DNA from: a virus
Taxonomy: Duplodnaviria; Heunggongvirae; Uroviricota; Caudoviricetes
Virus record (IMG/VR): IMGVR_UViG_2703718806_000011
Span: 1-8,790 of that record
Length of the DNA: 8,790 nucleotides
Reading direction: 5' to 3' (one strand)
The position numbers and the translations under genes were made by a program. The notes under the pieces were generated by a model. The model was given only the letters and a program-made list of their open reading frames with translations. It did not search any database and was not told the DNA's origin. Below, piece after piece: positions 1 to 8,790 of this stretch. The first letter of the stretch is position 1. The number at the start of each line of letters is the position of its first letter.

Positions 1-114
1 AACACGCGCATAATTTTCGGCTGTCATGCTGTCCGGCTGCGTGGCCTGTTCGTCAGCCTGCTGGCTGATTCCGGCGACGCGGCGGATTAATCCCAGTATT
101 TCGGCTTCTGTCAT
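1..114 (-). CDS. Hypothetical protein, N-terminal 38 codons only (MTEAEILGLIRRVAGISQQADEQATQPDSMTAENYARV...); runs off the window start
   Basis: ATG at 114-112 with a G-rich stretch (GGGGG) 5 nt upstream; open frame to position 1. Too short in-window to appear in the ORF track. Sits downstream of the capsid gene, so possibly another head-module gene (inference). Confidence 0.35.
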   Translation of the reverse strand, partial: MTEAEILGLIRRVAGISQQADEQATQPDSMTAENYARV

Positions 115-255
115 TGTGCCCCCATCGCGCTGGTGAAGAAAACAAGCTCAGATTTTTTGTAAAGAATCTGTCACGCTAAAAGATGTCGAACAAAAATTAA
201 CCACAATCATCATCTTTTTTGCATCAACAACATTAAAAACAACAGGTTACACACA

Positions 256-350
256 TGATGATGATGACGATAAAATCACAAAAATGCGCTTTTTTCCGCG
301 CCGCCCGCCCCGTGTTCAGGCCCACCCCACCAGGAGGACCCGCAAAAAAG
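256..350. repeat. Copy 1 of a ~95-bp direct repeat (core 281-350, about 93% identical to 2818-2888), with a (GAT)n-like trinucleotide stretch at one end
   Basis: Aligned by eye against 2793-2888. Shared core AAAATGCGCyTTTTTCCGCGCC...GCCCCGTGTTCAGGCCC(A/C)CCCCACCAGGAGGACCCGCAAAAAAG. Confidence 0.6.
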
Positions 351-365
351 GCGGCTGGTGCCGCC
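341..365 (-). terminator. Rho-independent terminator just after the capsid gene stop
   Basis: GC stem GGCGGC-tggt-GCCGCC (350-365), followed on the minus strand by TTTTTTG (349-343); lies 6 nt beyond the stop at 372. Confidence 0.6.
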
Positions 366-371
366 TTGTTG

Positions 372-2261
372 TCATAGTGAATCGGTACCACCTGATTTGA
401 CCATACCGCGATAATCCAGAGCTGCCACACCTGCATCAATACGGACTTTCCAGGCCACGCCGTCAACGATAAAACCTTCCTGCTGTTCAAGGTAAGGTTC
501 GTCATTACCATCAAGATAAGCCACCTCGATTGTGTCCGTTCCCTGTGCGGAAAGCATGTACCATTGTTTTTCGCTGATATCATCAAGGCGGGGATCGACG
601 ATGATATCAAGTAGCTTGTGATACGGGTTAAAGATCCCGCTGTTTTTATCAGCCCCGAAAGGTGCGGTTGAGTTAATCATCTGCAACGCGCGATCTTCCA
701 GTGCTGCCGGAACTAAAAGGAATTTAGGCGCAATATTCAGCACTTCGCCATTTTTGTCCTTCTGTGTGCGCATCAGGTGACGTGCTGCACTAAGTCCCGG
801 TGTTGTCAGTCCTGCTTCAATCAGGTTGCTGTGTTTTTTGTCAAACAGCGTTATTCCGTCAGAAAGTTTTACGTTGCCTGTAAGCACCAGATTAACCAGA
901 TTTCCCACCGTTCTTGATGCTGCACGGCCCATAGCCATTGGCACCGTTGATAACTGATCAAGGTCATCATTGATTATCGCCTGGCGGGTAATGCTGAAAA
1001 TATTCCCGTAAGTAGCCAGCGCGATGGGTTCACCGCGATCGCTGGTGGTGATGTATTTATATTCTGCCCCTTCCGGCACTTTGTTTAACGTTGAGAAGCC
1101 ATTCATACCAACGCGGCGGGCTTCCCGGAAGTTTGAAAGGGAACCTTTTTTCGTCCACTGGCGGAATGTTTCGCCACTGTGCTCCCAGCCTGCAAGCACT
1201 GATTTTTCAGCGCCACCAGCAAGGATATCGGTAAAATCGCTGCTGCTGTGGGTGAATGCCGCGTTTACTATCTGCGAGCGTGTGCCGTAGCTGCCCGTGC
1301 TTATACCACGATGGGTTAATGATGCCTGTGCCATATCGAAAAGGCTCATCATGGCGTAAGGATTACCGCGTTCGGCCCGTTCGTGACCAAGACGCGCATT
1401 AAGCCCCTGACGCATGGCATCGCCGGTTATATTGCCGTTATCCGTGTACGCGTAGTAAAGATTTGCGGGGGTGGTTTTGTTTGTTGGCGTTGATTCTTTA
1501 CCCATAGCGAGTAAAAGGCGTTCGCGTGCATTCTCAACGCTACATTCTGAATCCGCAAGACAACTTATAGCCAGGTCGTTATATCTTCCGTTGAAGGTGC
1601 CAAACAATTCACGGATTCCGTTAAGTCGTTCCTGTTCGCCACTGCCAGTTTTCTGGCTGATCATGCTTTTAATTTTTTCCGGCATATTTGAAAAATCTCC
1701 GATTCGTTTTGATTCAATTCGGGCCATTGCTGTAATCGCGGGTATAACCTCATCTGCGAAGCCGTTAGCCTTACACTCATTGCCATCCATCCAGGTTTCC
1801 GCCTCCATCATGGAGGTGATCTCCTGTTTGCTCCTGCCCGTTCTTCCGGCATAGGTTTCTGCCATCGTGTCGCCCAGCTTGTCCATCAGATCAGCAAAGC
1901 GGCGAACGTCGCCCGACACTCCGGCAGTAACACCACGGGGGGCATGTATCATCATCATCGCGTTTTCAGGCATAACGATGTGATCTCCACACATGGCAAT
2001 AAACGACGCCATAGAAGCCGCCATGCCTTCAATGTGTACGATTTTTTTTGCCGGATGATTTTTCAGGGCGTTATAGATAGCCAGCCCTTCAAAGATGTCG
2101 CCACCAGGTGAATGAATGCTCAGATGGATTTCAGACGCATTACCACACGCGTTGATCTCGTCAGTAAGTGCCGATGCTTTTACACCGTACCCGCCGATCT
2201 CGTCATAAATGCGCACATAGACAACATCTGCCATAGCCTTAATGGAAAACCATGTTTTCAT
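372..2261 (-). CDS. Prohead serine protease (ClpP family) fused to HK97-fold major capsid protein, 629 aa
   Basis: N-terminal ~170 aa aligns with ClpP around the catalytic residues: IHSPGGD, GMAASMASFIA (compare ClpP GQAASMGAFLL, catalytic Ser) and MMIHAPRG (compare ClpP VMIHQPLGG, catalytic His). The C-terminal ~400 aa has the length and composition of an HK97-family capsid protein. RBS TAGGAG 8 nt upstream of the ATG at 2261. Confidence 0.85.
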   Translation of the reverse strand: MKTWFSIKAMADVVYVRIYDEIGGYGVKASALTDEINACGNASEIHLSIHSPGGDIFEGLAIYNALKNHPAKKIVHIEGMAASMASFIAMCGDHIVMPENAMMMIHAPRGVTAGVSGDVRRFADLMDKLGDTMAETYAGRTGRSKQEITSMMEAETWMDGNECKANGFADEVIPAITAMARIESKRIGDFSNMPEKIKSMISQKTGSGEQERLNGIRELFGTFNGRYNDLAISCLADSECSVENARERLLLAMGKESTPTNKTTPANLYYAYTDNGNITGDAMRQGLNARLGHERAERGNPYAMMSLFDMAQASLTHRGISTGSYGTRSQIVNAAFTHSSSDFTDILAGGAEKSVLAGWEHSGETFRQWTKKGSLSNFREARRVGMNGFSTLNKVPEGAEYKYITTSDRGEPIALATYGNIFSITRQAIINDDLDQLSTVPMAMGRAASRTVGNLVNLVLTGNVKLSDGITLFDKKHSNLIEAGLTTPGLSAARHLMRTQKDKNGEVLNIAPKFLLVPAALEDRALQMINSTAPFGADKNSGIFNPYHKLLDIIVDPRLDDISEKQWYMLSAQGTDTIEVAYLDGNDEPYLEQQEGFIVDGVAWKVRIDAGVAALDYRGMVKSGGTDSL

Positions 2262-2452
2262 AGCCAGGCTCCTAACGTTGCCTGGTACCAGTATTCAACC
2301 GCGCTGCGTGTGATTTGTCCTTTCGTGGGCACTGGCATACCCGGGTGATTATCTTTGATGAACTGCTGATAGCGTTCGATCTTCTCCATAGTTCCGGCGT
2401 CTATGTGCACAGTGGCACTTTTATCCGGCTTTCTGGTGTTGTTCTCTGGCAT
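2258..2452 (-). CDS. Hypothetical small protein, 64 aa from the favoured start at 2452 (ORF track start 2485 gives 75 aa); translationally coupled to the capsid gene
   Basis: GGAGG lies 7 nt upstream of the ATG at 2452, whereas the ATG at 2485 has no Shine-Dalgarno. The stop overlaps the capsid start (ATGA). Predicted strand-helix-helix pattern (ATVHIDAGTMEKIERYQQFI...) suggests a small DNA-binding or assembly factor (inference). Confidence 0.5.
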   Translation of the reverse strand: MPENNTRKPDKSATVHIDAGTMEKIERYQQFIKDNHPGMPVPTKGQITRSAVEYWYQATLGAWL

Positions 2453-2647
2453 AAATCCGCCTCCGTTTTGATTAACGGGCATCATTATTGATCGATAAAA
2501 GTAATAGATAAATCATTTTCTACCTGAAAATCAGATTATGTTTTTTCTGATTATTCTCAGAAAGGCAAAGTTATTGACGCATTTTTGCCATTGAAGCAGT
2601 ATTAAGACTCGTCATCCTGGCGATAAAAACTCCTTTGTCGTGTAAAA

Positions 2648-2683
2648 GCGCCTCCGGTAACAGCAATCGGGGGCGCTTTTTTT
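2648..2683. terminator. Intrinsic terminator, strongest in the plus orientation and probably bidirectional
   Basis: Stem GCGCCTCCG (2648-2656) / CGGGGGCGC (2668-2676) with one G-U pair, followed by TTTTTTT (2677-2683) on the plus strand and preceded by AAAA, which gives UUUU on the minus strand. Confidence 0.5.
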
Positions 2684-2792
2684 GCGCCTGTTTTTTTGTA
2701 AATGCTTTCGGGAACGCTCCAGTGATGAACAAAAAACAACCTGATTCGACACTAAAATTTTTTATTCCTCAATATATCAATAACTTATAGTG

Positions 2793-2888
2793 GTGGTGAT
2801 GGTGCCATAAAAATCAAAAAATGCGCCTTTTTCCGCGCCCCTCCGCCCCGTGTTCAGGCCCCCCCCACCAGGAGGACCCGCAAAAAAG
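2793..2888. repeat. Copy 2 of the ~95-bp direct repeat (pairs with 256-350); carries a C8 tract at 2859-2866
   Basis: Aligned by eye with 256-350. The two copies differ by one indel and a few substitutions, so plus-strand reading frames through them are not conserved, arguing the element is non-coding. Confidence 0.6.
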
Positions 2889-2904
2889 CCGGATTGCTCC
2901 GGCT
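2880..2904 (-). terminator. Rho-independent terminator after the SSB-like gene
   Basis: Stem AGCCGGA-ttgc-TCCGGCT (2887-2904) followed on the minus strand by a T-run (complement of 2881-2886); lies 16 nt beyond the stop at 2920. Confidence 0.6.
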
Positions 2905-2919
2905 TCTGTCACTCGTTGC

Positions 2920-3177
2920 TTAAAACGGTATGTTATCCCCGTACGGATCATCGTTACCCGCCACGCTCACCAGTTCGCCTTTGTGGTGTTTTGCCAGTGC
3001 GTCGGCCTGTCTGCCAAACGCCAGGACGGATAACCACATCGTCGCCGTTCCGTCATCGGCCTGGCTGCACGGCAGGGGGATAGCCATACCCGCCATCGCC
3101 ATTTGTGTACCCTTGCTGGTGGTCTTTAACTGTGGGTCAGCCACCAGCCGCCCGTAAGCGGCTATCTGTGCTGTCAT
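2920..3177 (-). CDS. Truncated SSB-like OB-fold protein, 85 aa, ending in an SSB-type acidic C-terminal tip (...DDPYGDNIPF)
   Basis: The N-terminal part resembles the start of E. coli SSB (IAAYGRLVADPQLK vs VILVGNLGQDPEVR; WLSVLAFGRQADALAKHHKGELVSV vs [26 protein letters not shown]), and the last residues DNIPF match the SSB tip DDDIPF. Start overlaps the upstream gene stop (ATGA). Confidence 0.6.
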   Translation of the reverse strand: MTAQIAAYGRLVADPQLKTTSKGTQMAMAGMAIPLPCSQADDGTATMWLSVLAFGRQADALAKHHKGELVSVAGNDDPYGDNIPF

Positions 3178-3443
3178 GATTCCACCTCTCCGGTTTTAAT
3201 GTTGATGGTTGTTACCTGTTCCGCTTCGGCAATCTCCCGTTCTGTCAGCGTGGCAAAGTTTGCCGCCGCTGTGGTCATGAATGCGCTTATCAGTTCGGGA
3301 TGTTCCTTCGCGTATCCTTCCCCCGCGTGGCGGTCTATTACCCTGATTGCTACCTTTAAGGCGTGCTCTGTCATGTCTAACGCTTTATATTTTGGCTCTG
3401 TTCTGTCTCTGCGCATTTTGGTTATCTCCTCACTCATGCTCAC
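3174..3443 (-). CDS. Hypothetical protein, 89 aa (GTG start at 3443; alternative ATG at 3437)
   Basis: Plausible composition; GAGG lies 7 nt upstream of the GTG, inside an ori iteron; coupled to the downstream SSB-like gene by a 4-nt overlap. Confidence 0.5.
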   Translation of the reverse strand: MSMSEEITKMRRDRTEPKYKALDMTEHALKVAIRVIDRHAGEGYAKEHPELISAFMTTAAANFATLTEREIAEAEQVTTINIKTGEVES

Positions 3444-3630
3444 TTTTGCGCCTCACTTTTTAAAGCGTCTCGCTTCGTCTCACTTGATATTTTTGATGTT
3501 TTTATGTGCATGTTTCATAAGGATTTTTTACTCCTCACTTTTTGGGGTATATATACGTTGAAAAGTGAGGAGTTCAGGGGGTTTTTCGTGCAATTCCTCA
3601 TTGTCCTCACTTTTGCGCCTCACTTTTTAC
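3429..3630. repeat. Putative origin of replication: iterons of consensus CCTCACTTTT around an AT-rich core
   Basis: The 23-bp unit CTCACTTTTGCGCCTCACTTTTT occurs at 3439-3461 and 3606-3628. A perfect 12-bp inverted repeat CTCCTCACTTTT (3531-3542) / AAAAGTGAGGAG (3561-3572) flanks a TATATATA spacer. Partial copies at 3429-3435, 3477-3486 and 3596-3603. AT-rich stretch 3481-3530. Lies immediately 3' of the replication gene. Confidence 0.55.
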
Positions 3631-5036
3631 AGAGGGCCTACATCATCACCGTCGATATAAATAACCCCGTCTTTTTCCAGCTTGCGTAGCCAGCGGCTGA
3701 AGTTTTTCATTTCGTACCCCAGCTTTTTCATATCGTCACGTAACAGCGGGATCGTGCACTTGTCGCCGTGCTGTGTGCGTGACCGGATACATCCCCATAG
3801 CGCAGCATGATTCTCCGTCTTGTTGCCAGCCTCTTCGATGCGCTCCAGTTCAACGGGAGGACGCGGCTTATCCACCACCACCAGCGACGTGATTAACTCC
3901 CCGTCAGCGTCGGTAAAAAGCTCCACCACCCGCAAATCATAGGCAGCCTCTTTGAGTTCCTCCGCGTCCTTCATTTTGGTGCATGAGATAACCAGCGCTT
4001 CGCTTCCTGCGTCCTCCCTGCGTATCCGGTATTCAGCGTCCAGTGATGCACGAAATGCACTGGAACCACGCGCCCCCTTTGTTTCATCCTTGCCGGAATG
4101 GTGAACCACCAGCACCGTAGCCCCTGTGCGCCGTTTAAGCTCGTCACAACCACGGATAAATGCCCCCATGTCGCGGGAGTCATTTTCATCATTGCCGCCA
4201 AAGCAACGCGCCAGCGTGTCCAGAATAATCATGCGAACAGGTTTACCCGTTTCCCTCTCCACCTGACTGGCAGCAATAACCAGTTCATCAACATCAAGCG
4301 GGACAGCCGGAAAGATGGGACGGTTTACCAGATACAGATTTTTCACCTGCTCACCGTGCACAACCTCCCAGGCTTTTACACGACGCGGAACGCCGATACC
4401 GCCTTCACCAACCACATAGAGAACAGCGCCATGCGCCACCCTGCGGCCTCCCCACTGGCGGCCCGTGGAAACGTGACACGCCCACGATCCGGCAAGGAAT
4501 GATTTATAGGAACCGCTCGCCCCGTATATGCTGCAAAGCGACGATGCCGGAATAATCCCCTTTACCACGTAATCAAGCTGTGTGTCGTATCCGGTAGATC
4601 CAACGCTCATCGGTAGCTTGGTTTTTCGCTGGGGGATTTTTTTCATGACCAGGCTTTCCCCGCGTTCCCATGCCTCCCTAAGCCGTGGAAGCTGGTCGCT
4701 CCATTCCTCCAGCAATTCGAAATTTTCAGAAAGTAGCCGCGCCTCCTGGACTCCGGCGATCGCCAGTTTCGTGGCGATGGTTAACAGCTGCGGCTCTTCA
4801 ATATTTCCGGCGCGTATCACCGTCGCCCTGTATCGCCCATCATCAACAATCTGGAGGTTATCCAGTTCGCTTAACTGATAACGCCCCAGATAAACGGGAG
4901 GGACTGGATCGCCTGCTTTTTTGGCCTGTGCAATGATGTAATGCTCTGCGAATGAGTGAGCATCAATACCCGCAAAAATAATCGCATCGGTGTATTTATC
5001 TTTCGGTAATCGTTTTACGTTCGGTGCCAGTTTCAT
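3627..5036 (-). CDS. Replication protein with a RepA/DnaB-like (RecA-fold) ATPase domain, 469 aa; primase/helicase-type satellite replication initiator
   Basis: P-loop-like IYGASGSYKSF, Walker B-like RMIILD, and HHSGKD, as in RepA-like helicase domains (from memory, unverified). AGGGG lies 6 nt upstream of the ATG at 5036. Start overlaps the upstream gene stop (ATGA). Confidence 0.8.
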   Translation of the reverse strand: MKLAPNVKRLPKDKYTDAIIFAGIDAHSFAEHYIIAQAKKAGDPVPPVYLGRYQLSELDNLQIVDDGRYRATVIRAGNIEEPQLLTIATKLAIAGVQEARLLSENFELLEEWSDQLPRLREAWERGESLVMKKIPQRKTKLPMSVGSTGYDTQLDYVVKGIIPASSLCSIYGASGSYKSFLAGSWACHVSTGRQWGGRRVAHGAVLYVVGEGGIGVPRRVKAWEVVHGEQVKNLYLVNRPIFPAVPLDVDELVIAASQVERETGKPVRMIILDTLARCFGGNDENDSRDMGAFIRGCDELKRRTGATVLVVHHSGKDETKGARGSSAFRASLDAEYRIRREDAGSEALVISCTKMKDAEELKEAAYDLRVVELFTDADGELITSLVVVDKPRPPVELERIEEAGNKTENHAALWGCIRSRTQHGDKCTIPLLRDDMKKLGYEMKNFSRWLRKLEKDGVIYIDGDDVGPL

Positions 5037-5332
5037 TTTTTACCCCTGAATCCGTTAATCATGGTTTTCAGCTTCTGGATGTTTGCCCGTGCCCTGGCGT
5101 TGCTGGTGGGCACGTTATGCGGCGCGGTCTGTACCAGAGAAAAATCACGCCGGAACTGATAAACAGGCATCACGCAATCATATTCGTAACCTTCACGGCG
5201 GTAAGTTACGCACCGTCCCGCCACGCCCTTAATCATTACCGTGCCGCCGTACTGGTCGCGGTAAATATCACCGCGCGTAAATTTAGGGTGAGTGTTGCCA
5301 CTGGCAGTTAAGCCAGAATATTTAAGTTTCAT
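5033..5332 (-). CDS. Hypothetical protein, 99 aa; resembles small conserved proteins found beside replication genes in P4-like prophages
   Basis: ORF-track protein with GDIYRDQYGGTVMIKGVAGRCVTYRREGYEYDCV, probably beta-rich. GGAG upstream of the ATG at 5332. Last gene of the small-gene operon before rep. Confidence 0.6.
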   Translation of the reverse strand: MKLKYSGLTASGNTHPKFTRGDIYRDQYGGTVMIKGVAGRCVTYRREGYEYDCVMPVYQFRRDFSLVQTAPHNVPTSNARARANIQKLKTMINGFRGKK

Positions 5333-5337
5333 TATTT

Positions 5338-5571
5338 TTATTCTCCGGTGTGCTGTTCGTTATATCTGTCGTGCAATTGGTCTATTTCTTGTAGTTCCAT
5401 TATTACAGGCTCAAGAAGCGTTATTAATGCCGTGACAATTCTTGATTTTTGTTTGTCGCGTTCATTGTCGCCAAGTGTTTCAAGCCATATGCGCAATATT
5501 TCCAGCATGTTTTCACTGTGAGAAAGTGCAATAAATGCGCGGTCTATTGTTTCAAGGTAAATATCACGCAT
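5338..5571 (-). CDS. Hypothetical small protein, 77 aa, predicted helical
   Basis: AGGGGG then TAAT before the ATG at 5571; the upstream gene stop TAA is 1 nt before the start. Confidence 0.6.
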   Translation of the reverse strand: MRDIYLETIDRAFIALSHSENMLEILRIWLETLGDNERDKQKSRIVTALITLLEPVIMELQEIDQLHDRYNEQHTGE

Positions 5572-5572
5572 A

Positions 5573-5794
5573 TTACCCCCTGCCAGACATTTTTCTTAAA
5601 TCAGATTCAGCAATATATTCCGCATAATCGGCAGTAATATTCAGTACGTCTATTCCAGTTGATTTATATTCTTTCGTGCCAAGTAAGAAAAATGCCGCTC
5701 TTATCAGTTCGGATATTGACGAAAGCGCATCACCTGCATCATCAGGCGCACCATCAAATTCCTTTTTCAGGGAATTAAAACGATCATCACGCAT
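5573..5794 (-). CDS. Hypothetical small acidic protein, 73 aa from the favoured start at 5794 (ORF track start 5842 gives 89 aa)
   Basis: The internal ATG at 5794 is preceded by the G8 tract that also encodes the C-terminal glycines of the upstream gene, and overlaps that gene's stop (ATGCGTGA). The longer N-terminal extension is hydrophobic and has no Shine-Dalgarno. Confidence 0.5.
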   Translation of the reverse strand: MRDDRFNSLKKEFDGAPDDAGDALSSISELIRAAFFLLGTKEYKSTGIDVLNITADYAEYIAESDLRKMSGRG

Positions 5795-6008
5795 AACCCC
5801 CCCCATTTTCACAATCAGCAACAAGAATATTTTTAGCGTCATTCAGCGACCGCGTGGCGGTGTATCGGATACATTCCAGGGCGAACGATGTGTATTCTTC
5901 CCGTTCTTCCTTTCGTGCAAGCTCTGCTGTGCATTCAATATCAATAAGCGCGTGCATCAGCGTAGTGAGTGCGGCGGCGGCTGCGTCCGGTGTGGTTTTA
6001 TTGCACAT
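5787..6008 (-). CDS. Hypothetical small acidic protein, 73 aa from the favoured start at 6008 (ORF track start 6062 gives 91 aa)
   Basis: GGAGGGG lies about 4 nt upstream of the ATG at 6008; the ATG at 6062 has no Shine-Dalgarno. C-terminus ...ENGGGYA. Confidence 0.5.
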   Translation of the reverse strand: MCNKTTPDAAAAALTTLMHALIDIECTAELARKEEREEYTSFALECIRYTATRSLNDAKNILVADCENGGGYA

Positions 6009-6228
6009 GTACCCCTCCGCATTTTTTTTCGTTAGAAATAAGCGTTCTTCTTTCCTGTTCATCGCTCAGGAATACGCAGACCTCACCGCTAAGGCGTTTA
6101 AGTAAGCCGATGATTGCCCCTGATTCGCTGTCGGTCATCATGCCAGGGTAATCCTCTGCCAGTGCGCAAATAACTTCGATTTGGTGGGCGCGTTCTGCTG
6201 CCTGTTGTAGTGTGATTTCCTGGCTCAT
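5998..6228 (-). CDS. Hypothetical small protein, 76 aa from the favoured start at 6228 (ORF track start 6285 gives 95 aa)
   Basis: AGGAGG lies 8 nt upstream of the ATG at 6228, which overlaps the upstream gene stop (ATGA). The longer form would begin inside the upstream gene with a Cys-rich, implausible N-terminus. Confidence 0.55.
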   Translation of the reverse strand: MSQEITLQQAAERAHQIEVICALAEDYPGMMTDSESGAIIGLLKRLSGEVCVFLSDEQERRTLISNEKKCGGVHVQ

Positions 6229-6419
6229 AAGCCTACCTCCTGACGAATACGGGCGGCAAATACAGCAACACAACCGGACGGGCAACGGCTACGCGCTTCG
6301 CGTTCCGTCCAGGCGGTTACGTGGATGATTTGAGATTCTCCGGCACTCAGTGCCAGAAAACGCCACATAAAGGCAGTTTGTGTGTGTACAAGGTGTGGTA
6401 TATGATTTACGGCAACCAT
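6225..6419 (-). CDS. Small protein, 64 aa, first gene of the early operon; possibly Icd-like (host cell-division inhibitor family common in P4-like prophages)
   Basis: Strong RBS GAGGAG 6 nt upstream of the ATG at 6419. The Icd-like assignment is from memory of the family pattern (aromatic-R-F-L-A-L core) and is unverified. Confidence 0.55.
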   Translation of the reverse strand: MVAVNHIPHLVHTQTAFMWRFLALSAGESQIIHVTAWTEREARSRCPSGCVAVFAARIRQEVGL

Positions 6420-6450
6420 AACGGCTCCTCGTTTACGTTGTTGGTTAGAA

Positions 6451-6491
6451 GCCCTGCGAGTGGTAACGACACTTGCGGGGCTTTGCTTTTT
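6451..6491 (+). terminator. Terminator-like hairpin plus U-tract on the plus strand; role unclear
   Basis: GCCCTGCGAGTG (6451-6462), loop GTAACGA, CACTTGCGGGGC (6470-6481), then TTTGCTTTTT. Two G-U pairs are allowed only in the plus-strand RNA; in the minus-strand RNA they become C-A mismatches. Confidence 0.3.
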
Positions 6492-6508
6492 ACTGTACCT
6501 ACTGATAT

Positions 6509-6552
6509 TGTACGTACGTAACGGAAATGATAATAGGAGTTACGTACGTACA
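6509..6552. promoter_or_regulatory. Palindromic operator: perfect 14-bp inverted repeat TGTACGTACGTAAC / GTTACGTACGTACA, arms separated by 16 bp
   Basis: Arms at 6509-6522 and 6539-6552. Each arm contains the self-complementary 10-mer TACGTACGTA, with copies 30 bp centre to centre. Overlaps both the early promoter and the RHH translation start. Confidence 0.6.
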
Positions 6553-6558
6553 TGTCAA
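6530..6558 (-). promoter_or_regulatory. Near-consensus sigma70 promoter for the minus-strand early operon
   Basis: On the minus strand: -35 TTGACA (6558-6553), 17-bp spacer, -10 TATTAT (6535-6530). Predicted transcription start near 6523, about 100 nt upstream of the first operon gene at 6419. Confidence 0.55.
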
Positions 6559-6743
6559 CATTAAAGCGCGATAAATCGCCACGCGGTGAGGGATGGTCTC
6601 CAACCTTCCAAATCAGAATCAGTAAAGAGCTACGCCAACAAGTAAATGAAGCTGCAACTTCTGACGGTCTAACCCTTGGTAACTGGTTTAAAGAATTAGC
6701 CAGGGCAGAACTAAAGCGGCGCGGCATAGAACCCAAAGGGTAA
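6552..6743 (+). CDS. Ribbon-helix-helix (Arc/CopG-like) DNA-binding protein, 63 aa; candidate repressor of the early operon
   Basis: Strand-helix-helix pattern FQIRISKELRQQVNEAATSDGLTLGNWFKELARAEL. The only convincing plus-strand gene, divergent from the early operon. AGGAG lies 12 nt upstream of the ATG, which sits inside the operator and the spacer of the opposing promoter. Confidence 0.6.
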   Translation: MSTLKRDKSPRGEGWSPTFQIRISKELRQQVNEAATSDGLTLGNWFKELARAELKRRGIEPKG

Positions 6744-6834
6744 TTACATTGCCCACCAGCCTGATAGCGGCTATCATTCCCGTGCTTATGTTTGGGATCA
6801 CATACACATAAGGCGCAGCAGGTTAATTGTTCAG

Positions 6835-6867
6835 AAAGGCGGCTCCATATCGGGGCCGCTTTTTTTA
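6835..6867 (+). terminator. Rho-independent terminator downstream of the RHH gene; may also stop convergent alpA transcription
   Basis: AGGCGGC ... GCCGC stem followed by TTTTTTT (6861-6867). Confidence 0.5.
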
Positions 6868-7007
6868 TGCCTGAAAAACCCCAATTTTGTTGTTTTTCAG
6901 TTTCACCAGGGCGAACGAATCCCCGCCCACGTTCGGGCGCATATTCAATCTTCATGGTTATATCTCTGTATTAGTGGATGTGTGGCGACTGTGTGCCGCC
7001 AGTCTTT

Positions 7008-7196
7008 TTAGTGAACTGCCTTGCAGCTATCCTTCCAGGCCAAAACCTCAGATAAAGACCAGCCAACAGAACGCCCGCCAAGTTTACGACGTGATGGGAA
7101 TTGTCCGGCCTTTTCCAGGCGGTAGCGGCATGAGCGGCTAAGGCCTGTTAGCTTTTCGCATTCTTTTTCACGTATAAACCGATCAGTGCTTAACAC
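7008..7196 (-). CDS. alpA: AlpA-family (excisionase-like, MerR-type) phage transcriptional regulator, 62 aa, GTG start
   Basis: ...EKLTGLSRSCRYRLEKAGQFPSRRKLGGRSVGWSLSEVLAWK matches the AlpA helix-turn-helix pattern. AAGGGGG lies about 4 nt upstream of the GTG at 7196. Confidence 0.8.
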   Translation of the reverse strand: MLSTDRFIREKECEKLTGLSRSCRYRLEKAGQFPSRRKLGGRSVGWSLSEVLAWKDSCKAVH

Positions 7197-7247
7197 TATT
7201 GCCCCCTTTCGTTTCTTAAAGAGTCATCAGGTGTCTTATTGTGTCGT

Positions 7248-7276
7248 ATTGTTCCCGCTAGTGTGGTGAATGGCAA
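7248..7276 (-). promoter_or_regulatory. Candidate sigma70 promoter for alpA
   Basis: On the minus strand: -35 TTGCCA (7276-7271), 17-bp spacer, -10 AACAAT (7253-7248). TATTGT-containing direct repeats at 7231-7255 overlap the -10 and start region. Confidence 0.3.
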
Positions 7277-7345
7277 ATGTTGATGTCGTATGGTTTACAG
7301 AAAGAGGAATAATCAGGATAAAATCATTTAAATTCATGTTAATAC

Positions 7346-7378
7346 AAAGGCATAAAATCTTGTTTTATGCCTTTTTTC
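7346..7378. terminator. Hairpin terminator between int and alpA, probably bidirectional
   Basis: GGCATAAAA-tcttg-TTTTATGCC (7349-7371), followed by TTTTTT on the plus strand and by TTTGTATT on the minus strand. Confidence 0.45.
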
Positions 7379-7468
7379 GCACGCTTTAACGCGTAATTCG
7401 CTAATGTATAAAAAACCAGTTAACCAATAAAAATCAGTAACTTATAAATCTGTATTCTTTTTGGCCTC

Positions 7469-7518
7469 TTGTTCGTGATTGTGTCACGTTGTTGCACATT
7501 GTTTCACGTTGTATCTGT
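7469..7518. repeat. Five direct repeats with exact 10-bp phasing (TTGTnnCACG-like) just 3' of int
   Basis: TTGT at 7469, 7479, 7489, 7499 and 7509; units TTGTTCGTGA, TTGTGTCACG, TTGTTGCACA, TTGTTTCACG, TTGTATCTGT. Confidence 0.4.
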
Positions 7519-7560
7519 GCACTTATCCAGTATGTGCATACTGAAAAAACACGAAAAAAA

Positions 7561-8790
7561 TTATTTTATTCTGGTTACTGGTAGCGTGGTTACGTTTTCA
7601 TGTGCTCCCGCCAGTATCCCTAACCGCTCCGTCCACATATCCAGCGCATCACGTTTCGCATCGAGATAACGGGAGTGGTTATAGACTCGTTGCATCCCTG
7701 GCATCTGATGACCTGTAAGCTGCTCCACGACGTGAGGATCCACGCCCAAATCATTCAGCATCGTTGTAAAGGTGCGCCGGATGTCATGCAATGACCATTG
7801 AGGGTGTTTTAGCCTCCTGTGCGCTAATCTGCCGTACTGCGATACGCTGGCCTCCTGTTTCACTTCCCCCAGTAATAAGCCCGTGTGCCTGTTCTGGTCC
7901 ACCAGCCGCGTGACGAACGGCAGGATCGCTTCCGGTATGGGCCGGAATATTGCAACCTTCGTTTTGCTGTGCTCCTTCGGAACGGTCCATAGCATTTCGG
8001 TAAAATCCCACTCGCTGATCTCCGATAACCTCAGTTCTACCGTCCTGGCTCCGAAGACAATCAGGAGGCGGATTAACGCGACGTAGTAAGGAGAAAATAT
8101 TTTTTTATCCAGCGCCTGCAATAACTCGCCCAGTTCTTTGGTGCTTAAGACACGTTCGCTTATATCCGGTTTTTTCCCAACGTCCGCCACGTTCAGATCG
8201 TCCAGAACGTTGCTGATTGCATAGCGCCGCCTACGGCAGAATTTAAGCGCCTGTTTGCATGTCTGTAGCAAGAATCCGGCAGTAACAGGTGTTCGCTTTG
8301 CCACCTGATCAAAACAGGCCAGCCAGTGCCGTAGCTCGCATTTATCCAGCGGCATAGCACCAATTTTGATGATTATGTTTTTATTGATCCGGCTTTTCAG
8401 TGATTCGTAATCTGTGCGCTTTTCCTTTGCGTACGACTCAAGCCAGTAGGTGAGCGCATCGCCAACCGTTGCAGGCTTTAACGCTTCCTGCATGGTGTAA
8501 TTCAGTTCATAGCGTGGATTTTTCCCCTCAGCCAGCCATGCGCGACACTGTGCGGCTTTTTCCCTGGCTGCTTTCAGGCTCAGATCGGGATAATTTCCCA
8601 GCTTAACGCGTTCAGGTTGTGTCCCTCTTCCCGTTCCGGCCCTGTATGTGAAATACCAGGTTAAAAGGCCGCTGGTTGAATGCCTGACGCTCAGGTTTCC
8701 ACCGTCATTAAGAAAGGCTGTTTTTTGGGCGGGTGTGCCGTTGATTTTCCTTAGCTGTGTGTCACTCAGTTTGTTAAGTGCTCTGCTCAT
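7561..8790 (-). CDS. int: P4-type tyrosine integrase (site-specific recombinase), 409 aa
   Basis: N-terminal arm-binding-type region (LSDTQLRKINGTPAQKTAFLNDGGNLSV...), and C-terminal catalytic motifs HDIRRT (HxxR) and GHQ...VYNHSRY (catalytic Tyr). The ATG is the last three bases of the window (8788-8790). Confidence 0.9.
   Translation of the reverse strand: MSRALNKLSDTQLRKINGTPAQKTAFLNDGGNLSVRHSTSGLLTWYFTYRAGTGRGTQPERVKLGNYPDLSLKAAREKAAQCRAWLAEGKNPRYELNYTMQEALKPATVGDALTYWLESYAKEKRTDYESLKSRINKNIIIKIGAMPLDKCELRHWLACFDQVAKRTPVTAGFLLQTCKQALKFCRRRRYAISNVLDDLNVADVGKKPDISERVLSTKELGELLQALDKKIFSPYYVALIRLLIVFGARTVELRLSEISEWDFTEMLWTVPKEHSKTKVAIFRPIPEAILPFVTRLVDQNRHTGLLLGEVKQEASVSQYGRLAHRRLKHPQWSLHDIRRTFTTMLNDLGVDPHVVEQLTGHQMPGMQRVYNHSRYLDAKRDALDMWTERLGILAGAHENVTTLPVTRIK

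Follow-up and report, generated by a model that had tools for sequence, protein, structure and literature searches.

Phage-inducible chromosomal islands (PICIs) that carry cos sites of the helper type are already known, as is an Escherichia coli PICI with two working sites: both cos sites of EcCICFT073 are functional experimentally (Fillol-Salom 2018 PMC6092414; 2019 PMC6739421). Here we describe an 8,790-nt stretch of viral DNA, hereafter the window (IMG/VR record IMGVR_UViG_2703718806_000011, positions 1 to 8,790), in which a capsid cassette is bracketed by a direct repeat. Judged by its genes, the window represents a Gram-negative, cos-type PICI of ~10 kb resembling EcCICFT073. Alignment identifies both repeats as lambda-family cos sites (cosQ-cosN-cosB) of two cosB classes, each class matching a natural class of helper phage. 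It is very probable that the repeats are the cos sites of this island and are used by the terminase of helpers with a matching small terminase subunit (TerS). A full-text literature search for two, multiple, second or additional cos sites gave nothing beyond the two EcCICFT073 papers. As far as we found, what appears to be new is a direct-repeat cos pair in which each cosB matches a different natural TerS class without the involvement of Rpp, a modest, sequence-based extension of what has been published.

Like the window, EcCICFT073 is a Gram-negative PICI with an integrase gene (int), a replication module, a capsid gene and a last gene of the same family. It also has two lambda-family cos sites with different cosB segments, each preceded by a GC hairpin and a T-run. 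The arrangement of the sites differs, however. Those of EcCICFT073 are inverted and stand on either side of the gene at the rppA position, ~0.8 kb from each other (2529(+) and 3339(-) in locus L087; L numbers are our handles for the loci compared), whereas those of the window are co-oriented, 2.54 kb apart (~7.55 kb the other way) and flank the capsid cassette. The cosN of EcCICFT073 is lambda's own, while its cos1 has a cosB that resembles no helper cosB and is recognised by an Rpp-TerS complex. In the window, by contrast, both cosB segments closely match those of natural helper prophages and no Rpp was detected by sequence: no window protein matched Rpp or a small terminase in Pfam or PHROG scans, and no structural search was made.

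Phage lambda shares with the window the same cosQ heptamer, a homologous cosN and a cosQ-cosN spacing within 1 nt. The layout predicted after cosN, with a box at the R3 position, a candidate integration host factor (IHF) site and an inverted box, resembles that of lambda. The pairing of lambda with phage 21 parallels the two classes of the window, in that specificity is predicted to reside in cosB and the N-terminal domain of TerS while the rest of the terminase is shared. Lambda differs in that its TerS belongs to the Nu1 family and that of the window's helpers to the DUF1441 family. The R boxes of the window type are trinucleotide-periodic (CATCAT... or CACCATCACC...), unlike those of lambda, and the stretch equivalent to lambda's 12-nt cohesive end is 10-12 nt long here, with a different sequence.

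Two other groups of satellites invite comparison. The cos-type Staphylococcus aureus pathogenicity islands (SaPIs), such as SaPIbov5 and SaPIbov4 (the latter with two putative cos sites), also copy a helper cos and encode no terminase, and SaPIbov5 likewise has a capsid protein homologue. They differ in that their hosts are Gram-positive, their cos sequences are unrelated and their terminases are HNH-dependent, and they are not reported to be connected with two specificity classes of helper. Helper-embedded PICIs (HE-PICIs), in which a 258-bp cos-like segment common to island and helper has been noted (PMC10111431), lie inside the large terminase gene of a lambdoid prophage. Two sister islands of the window do the same, splitting that gene into 4647-5777 and 16194-17198 (L007) or 3476-4597 and 15289-16278 (L086). 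The window itself does not show its integration site, and its closest annotated relative, the ~10.08-kb island L001, stands beside a tRNA-Pro gene.

The repeats as lambda-family cos sites

The largest direct repeat in the window, as returned by a repeat search, pairs 256-367 with 2794-2905. In gapped alignment, 75 of 80 columns are identical between 272-350 (copy 1) and 2810-2888 (copy 2), or 93.8% with two gap columns; for 256-350 against 2794-2888 the count is 87 of 97 (89.7%). The hairpin segments that adjoin the two copies are identical at just 11 of 17 positions, and the flanks past cosN diverge, with 56% identity between 120-255 and 2660-2793. A preliminary description of this DNA had given the position and identity of the repeat correctly, along with its two indels, a C8 tract in one copy where the other has CCCACCCC, a trinucleotide-like flank (TGATGATGATGA versus TGGTGATGGTG on the plus strand) and the placement of the copies around a small gene and a protease-capsid gene. 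It was also right that the repeat is non-coding, since indels between the copies break the reading frame and phages carry the element between genes. On the same grounds, small open reading frames (ORFs) over the repeats were rejected as genes (255-377 and 2821-3033, both plus-strand, and the 'hypothetical protein' that PGAP annotates across copy 1 of L001). The description had further placed a different GC hairpin immediately after each copy. The hairpins do differ, but their order was reversed: in the direction of transcription, the repeat lies downstream of the hairpin. A 'promoter region' inside the bracket was not recovered, as a consensus scan found no minus-strand promoter there. Of 5426 complete E. 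coli genomes, 970 contain the 81-nt core of the repeat, at 1585 places in all and with a lowest E-value of 6e-33. The element is thus conserved across many genomes, and the match is not due to chance.

Read on the minus strand, each copy consists of a T-run, the heptamer GGGTCCT, a 24-nt spacer, the block ACG/GGGCGG..CGCGG and an A/T-rich flank. Copy 1 in full is TTTTTTGC-GGGTCCT-CCTGGTGGGGTGGGCCTGAACACG-GGGCGGGCGGCGCGG-AAAAAAGCGCATTTTTGTGATTTTATCGTCATCATCATCATG. For reference, the two ends of the lambda genome were joined (...ACGGGTCCTTTCCGGTGATCCGACAGGTTACG/GGGCGGCGACCTCGCGGGTTTTCGC), and against this junction copy 1 reads GCGGGTCCTCCTGGTGGGGTGGGCCTGAACACG/GGGCGGGCGGCGCGGAAAAAAGCGC. The block aligns with lambda cosN, ACG/GGGCGGCGACCT/CGCGGG. 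The stretches of copy 1, ACG/GGGCGGGCGG CGCGG, and of copy 2, ACG/GGGCGGAGGGG CGCGG, can each be aligned to lambda and to EcCICFT073, whose cosN is identical to that of lambda. The heptamer matches what we take to be lambda cosQ, and the distance from cosQ to the nick is 24 nt in both copies versus 23 nt in lambda. By homology, the top-strand nick in copy 1 is predicted between 311 and 310, which would make 310 bp 1 of the cohesive end. P2/P4-type cos sites and a TGT-N12-ACA late-promoter motif, both considered as candidates, were set aside once the lambda alignment was clear. A cos site had not been among the readings of the preliminary description.

The position of the core in phages agrees with this identification. 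In all ten phages and prophages examined, its neighbours are the Rz/lysis genes on one side and, on the other, a DUF1441 gene overlapping that of the large terminase. These comprise prophages L002, L003, L006 and L007, which come from O157:H7, O145:H28 and enteropathogenic E. coli, and phages VT1-Sakai, Stx2d_112808, 1720a-02, CP-1639, phi458 and ASU11. DUF1441 matches PHROG 141 'terminase small subunit' at 6e-66, and lambda's own cos sits at the equivalent place, between the lysis genes and the TerS gene. The suggestion that the repeat marks module boundaries holds for both kinds of element: in phages it separates lysis genes from packaging genes, and in islands it separates the replication module, the capsid cassette and the last gene. 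Two sequence records offer circumstantial support for physical DNA ends at the core. The linear mEp460_4F5 record (L094/L095, LR595868.1) ends ...GGGTCCTCCCGGTGGGGTGGCCTG and starts CCACGGGGCGGG..., a break 4 nt before the predicted nick; compared with phi458, its cosN lacks 3 nt. The ASU11 record (L092, ON416862.2; ~1440-1500) is without 44 bp spanning cosN. These irregularities are probably effects of assembling sequence at virion DNA ends.

One further feature of this region was observed next to cosQ. Helper phages (L002 at ~9085-9100, L006 and the helper in L007) and lambda (48452-48466) have a Fur-box-like palindrome directly upstream of cosQ, AATGATAACCATTATC (GATAATCATTATC in lambda). 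In the islands, a GC-rich terminator stem replaces it.

Two cosB classes and the helpers that match them

Beyond the common core, copy 1 and copy 2 carry different cosB segments, referred to here as type A and type B (Table 1). The type A signature of copy 1 is CATCATCATCAT plus an inverted GATGATGAT, with an A/T-rich stretch between them. The inverted box has the orientation opposite to that of the R3 equivalent, as lambda R2 does. From cosQ to R3, copy 1 and the helper prophage in L007 differ by one mismatch. Its flank is 81-87% identical to prophages of O157, O145 and O111 and 88-91% identical to Shiga toxin (Stx) phages such as VT1-Sakai. Copy 2 has the type B signature, CACCATCACCACCAC plus an IHF consensus, and the IHF pattern WATCAANNNNTTR has its single match in the whole window at this place (2775-2787). 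The flank of copy 2 is 89-91.5% identical to O157, O55 and O111 prophages, where it lies beside a type B TerS, and 93% identical to phages 1720a-02 and CP-1639.

The order of elements follows that of lambda cosB, in which R3 at bp 50-65 is followed by the IHF site I1 and then by an inverted R2; R3 of N15 occupies bp 48-60 (PMC9026076). The boxes of the window at bp 42-59, the IHF consensus of copy 2 and the inverted box of copy 1 at bp 95-110 all fit this layout in position. What the preliminary description had called a trinucleotide-repeat flank is likely the TerS recognition box. A trinucleotide-periodic box stands at the R3 position in every lineage (L008-L021, L076, L085-L087), and its sequence varies among them: CATCATCAT, CACCATCACC, CATCACCAC, GGCGGCGGCAGC, GGTGGTGGTGG, CTGTCAGCAGCAGG and GACACCACCAAG.

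The variation in cosB is mirrored in TerS. Eleven cos-TerS pairs were compared, from the ten phages and prophages and from island L086, which encodes its own TerS in a DUF1441 gene after the capsid-distal cos. In these pairs, the cosB type tracks the first 75 residues of TerS. Identity over this segment is 93-100% among proteins of the same type (A or B) and 56-59% across the two types; over the remainder of the protein, A and B are 95% identical. A third type, B', unites two phages that have identical TerS N-terminal parts with L086, whose TerS shows 68% identity to them. The distance from cosN to terS is likewise fixed by type, at 202-204 bp in A, 162 bp in B and 189 bp in B'. Capsid proteins show 99% identity between type A and type B helpers. 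On these comparisons, the A/B situation is the classic one of lambda and 21, with packaging specificity predicted to lie in cosB and the TerS DNA-binding domain.

Conservation of the pair in sister islands

Seven islands with the capsid cassette were examined: the window, L001, L007, L096, L097, L098 and L099, whose cassette regions are 88-99% identical to that of the window. In all seven, a B-type cos follows the gene for SSB (single-stranded DNA-binding protein) or PerC, and an A-type cos follows the capsid gene. That both copies persist, with flank types and order unchanged, speaks against the mere recombination scar that the preliminary description had considered. At least 80% of window 1-3200 is present in 143 genomes. 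The annotated island L001 encodes an integrase, an HTH regulator, an Icd-like protein, a primase, SSB, the small gene, the protease-capsid fusion and a 93-aa last gene, and the L007 island is embedded within a type A helper. In the more divergent island L098 (strain SCU-111; sites at 712 and 3261), both cos sites share an unusual cosN, GGGCGGGTCGGCGCGG, which suggests gene conversion between the copies.

The slot next to SSB has other contents elsewhere, always behind the same terminator. It holds a type A cos in the IHE3034 island, a GGCGGCGGCAGC-type cos in L086 and no cos in EcCICFT073, where the terminator after PerC is GCCGGAGCAATCCGGC-T6. The IHE3034 island (L085) has a different capsid cassette, of the lambda E/D type, and three cos sites at 9135(-), 6694(-) and 5810(+), of which one is type A and two are lambda-type (one of them inverted). 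As candidates for capsid-less cos-to-cos deletions, hits H112-H116 (648 bp, with the SSB end joined to a type A cos) were ruled out by the IHE3034 annotation.

The double arrangement was surveyed within E. coli. A search for capsid relatives with one genome per species returned no close relatives; its best matches, at 57-62% identity, were in Kluyvera, Yersinia, Moellerella, Rahnella and Buttiauxella, with a single cos after the capsid gene or none detected. The single cos of Buttiauxella was found with a different search pattern. The preliminary description would have counted a core found only once in closely related elements against its reading, and on this point the outcome is mixed. The core is found twice in close relatives, and once, downstream of the capsid gene, in the distant satellites of Kluyvera, Moellerella and Rahnella. 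Because these distant satellites have a single post-capsid cos, the capsid-distal site is ancestral and the second slot a variable add-on.

A predicted packaging route and its alternatives

If the two sites act as their sequences predict, induction of a resident lambdoid helper would be followed by excision and replication of the island. The helper terminase, composed of TerS and the large subunit TerL, would then bind the cos that matches its TerS. The large subunit would make staggered nicks at cosN, at ~310 or 2848, and island DNA would be packaged toward cosB, that is, toward lower window coordinates. In this scheme, cosQ would be the packaging termination signal and the cosB box at bp ~42-59 the place where TerS binds. 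The shared ~80-bp core would be the part that any lambda-like large terminase subunit needs, and the flanks would differ because of the two TerS specificity classes. An Rpp-type adaptor is apparently unneeded: both cosB regions match helper cosB, so no Rpp-type retargeting would be required. Cleavage, the use of both copies and a dual-helper benefit are what we infer from these comparisons.

Why an island should keep two such sites is a matter on which we offer a tentative answer. Two full cos sites of distinct TerS specificity may let either of two lambdoid/Stx helper classes, otherwise near-identical but unable to read each other's cosB, package the island without Rpp; the capsid cassette that they enclose would be either a by-product or a unit open to exchange. 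We regard this as a distinct possibility, short of an expectation. Several points weigh against the packaging route as described, the dual-helper benefit included. Co-oriented cos sites 2.5 kb apart could give sub-genomic products of 2.5 kb and ~7.5 kb, as in lambda cos duplications, and would be harmful unless the nearer site is skipped. In lambda, a terminal cos is cut poorly when the packaged length is short. Packaging of EcCICFT073 skips cos sites and gives DNA of phage length (PMC6092414), and by analogy skipping is plausible in the island of the window. Copy 2 is also the less constant of the two sites. Its cosN differs from that of type B helpers at 2-3 positions and varies among sister islands (GGGCGGAGGGG, GGGCGGGTCGG or GGGCGGGCGGG), and AGGTACT replaces GGGTCCT at its cosQ in four of the seven islands; copy 2 may thus be weaker or partly decayed. 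The distant satellites of Kluyvera, Moellerella and Rahnella manage with one cos just after the capsid gene. Finally, deleting the second cos of EcCICFT073 raised transfer (PMC6092414), a result that keeps two alternatives in play.

The better supported of these, though still rather unlikely in our estimate, is that copy 1 is the sole working site and copy 2 a relic without a role of its own, left by recombination with a type B phage or by an exchange of cassettes at the conserved cos core, and tolerated. Such a history would agree with the lone post-capsid cos of the distant satellites and with the variability of cosQ and cosN in copy 2, set beside a copy 1 that is nearly identical to a helper cos from cosQ to R3. 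The SSB-proximal slot is a recombination hotspot, since other PICIs hold different cos types there behind the same terminator, and in EcCICFT073 the cos2 deletion gave no reduction of transfer (PMC6092414). Against this reading, the cosB of copy 2 is well kept in the R3 box, the IHF site and the distal box, close to type B helpers as noted above, and is 93.6-99% identical in near-full-query matches, presumably islands (one was checked). All seven sampled islands retain copy 2, even though recombination should readily remove direct repeats 2.5 kb apart. The AGGTACT form of cosQ need not mean decay, as it also occurs in the cos of Rahnella and Morganella loci.

We consider it improbable that copy 2 instead acts against the helper, either as a decoy for type B terminase on amplified island DNA or as an extra termination site that tunes the packaged length. 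Termination in lambda needs cosQ, cosN and the segment from cosN to R3, and both copies keep all three. PICIs are known to interfere with helper packaging (through Rpp in EcCICFT073, PMC6739421), and transfer of EcCICFT073 by lambda changed significantly on deletion of cos2 (PMC6092414). For either role, however, an intact, type-matched cosB with an IHF site would be superfluous. Nor was an interference gene such as Rpp detected: the last gene (93 aa), the one of the two late small genes that was searched against solved structures, had no significant sequence match.

A transcript-level element, whether a structured RNA or a regulatory site for late or capsid expression, is barely credible, although each copy is intergenic, just past a terminator and upstream of the next gene or operon: an Rfam scan of the whole window (E<=1) gave three weak chance matches elsewhere and none at the repeats, neither strand of either core folds better than shuffled sequence (z -1.07 to +0.81), nothing was found pointing to the late-expression role that the preliminary description had listed, phages carry the same element at the cos position, and the pattern of conservation, with fixed cosQ and cosN and a variable box that tracks TerS, is what protein-DNA recognition predicts.

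Gene content of the island

The assignment of the window to the PICIs follows from its integrase, helicase, SSB, iterons, unidirectional genes and helper-type cos sites, and from a last gene and an SSB terminator held in common with EcCICFT073 and IHE3034. All credible genes of the window are on the minus strand (Table 1), and DUF4222 is also present (Pfam). The SSB of sister islands has 140 aa; relative to L001, ~156 bp of the gene are gone in the window at a 10-bp overlap (2953-2962). The satellite capsid fusion protein is ~51% identical to the fusion proteins of helper prophages, which rules out recent capture of the capsid gene from a helper; by this measure it is an old homologue. The family of the last gene also ends EcCICFT073 and the IHE3034 island.

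The GC hairpins next to the two cos sites are terminators of the replication and capsid operons. They lie outside cos and use the T-run that borders cosQ. The terminator scan listed no minus-strand terminators, and both hairpins were established by folding. The capsid terminator, GGCGGCACCAGCCGCC-T6, starts 6 nt past the capsid stop codon and has its T-run on the minus strand only, and the SSB terminator, GCCGGAGCAATCCGGC-T6, starts 16 nt past the SSB stop codon. A hairpin of the SSB type also precedes the SSB- or PerC-proximal site in other PICIs.

Other structures were observed outside the repeats. Between copy 2 cosB and the small gene, a conserved hairpin at 2644-2685 (-18.1 kcal/mol) is bordered on either side by T/A runs. 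Sister islands have it and helpers lack it; it may act as a terminator or attenuator upstream of the capsid operon. Immediately past the end of the helicase gene, at 3439-3632, three copies of TTTTGCGCCTCACTTTTT lie 82-85 bp apart (the sequence also occurs at 2680-2697), with a 22-nt palindrome at 3530-3573 within this iteron region. The segment looks like the iteron-type replication origin of the island, at the position reported for PICI origins. A perfect 14-nt inverted repeat at 6509-6552 (TGTACGTACGTAAC/GTTACGTACGTACA, with 16 nt between the arms), in or next to ORF 6407-6955, may be an operator.

Table 1. Features of the window, with positions counted from its first nucleotide
Feature	Position	Strand	Basis or remark
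cos copy 1, capsid-distal, complete cosQ-cosN-cosB, type A	147..350	-	Aligns with lambda cos
cosQ of copy 1, GGGTCCT	335..341	-	Identical to GGGTCCT in lambda right end
cosN of copy 1, ACG/GGGCGGGCGGCGCGG	296..313	-	Homology to lambda
R3 equivalent of copy 1, CGTCATCATCATCAT, bp 42-56 from nick	255..269	-	Lambda/N15 R3 position; co-varies with TerS N-terminal domain
Inverted R element of copy 1, AAGATGATGATTGTGG, bp 95-110, candidate R2 equivalent	201..216	-	Conserved in type A helpers
cos copy 2, SSB-proximal, cosQ-cosN-cosB, type B	2719..2888	-	Flank matches type B helpers
cosQ of copy 2, GGGTCCT	2873..2879	-	AGGTACT in sister islands L001, L007, L096, L099
cosN of copy 2, ACG/GGGCGGAGGGGCGCGG	2833..2851	-	2-3 differences from type B helper cosN, GGGCGGGCGGCGCGG
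R3 equivalent of copy 2, GGCACCATCACCACCAC	2790..2806	-	Distance from cosN same as in type B helpers
IHF consensus inside copy 2 cosB, TATCAATAACTTA, bp 62-74	2775..2787	+	Follows R3 equivalent, lambda I1 position
Start of last island gene, cut at window edge (93 aa in L001)	1..113	-	phrog_1561, unknown function
Capsid-operon Rho-independent terminator, stem GGCGGC/GCCGCC + T6	344..365	-	-15.1 kcal/mol, z -2.10
ClpP-like prohead protease/HK97-type major capsid protein fusion gene, 629 aa	372..2261	-	Pfam CLP_protease 3e-33, Phage_capsid_4 1e-54
Small gene upstream of capsid gene, 75 aa (64 aa as annotated in L001)	2258..2485	-	phrog_4934, unknown function; conserved in L001
Rho-independent terminator after SSB, stem GCCGGA/TCCGGC + T6	2882..2903	-	-17.3 kcal/mol, z -2.89
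Shortened SSB gene, 85 aa, last of replication module	2920..3177	-	Pfam SSB 7e-8
AAA_25 helicase	3627-5036	-	Pfam
Integrase	7561-8790	-	Pfam

Implications for PICI biology

An unexplained repeat thus becomes a defined DNA-packaging signal, which extends known biology and does not amount to a new kind of system. The window belongs to a PICI satellite of lambdoid prophages that include Shiga-toxin phages (VT1-Sakai, Stx2 phages and CP-1639). Two predictions follow. The N-terminal domain of a DUF1441-type TerS would determine specificity by reading the trinucleotide-periodic box 42-59 bp from cosN, and either helper class would be able to mobilise an island that has both box types. The R3-position box could serve as a simple classifier of packaging specificity. 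If these predictions are true, they would account for the presence of multiple cos sites in some PICIs, which had been left unexplained in the case of EcCICFT073 cos2, and would help to predict which prophages spread which islands among pathogenic E. coli.

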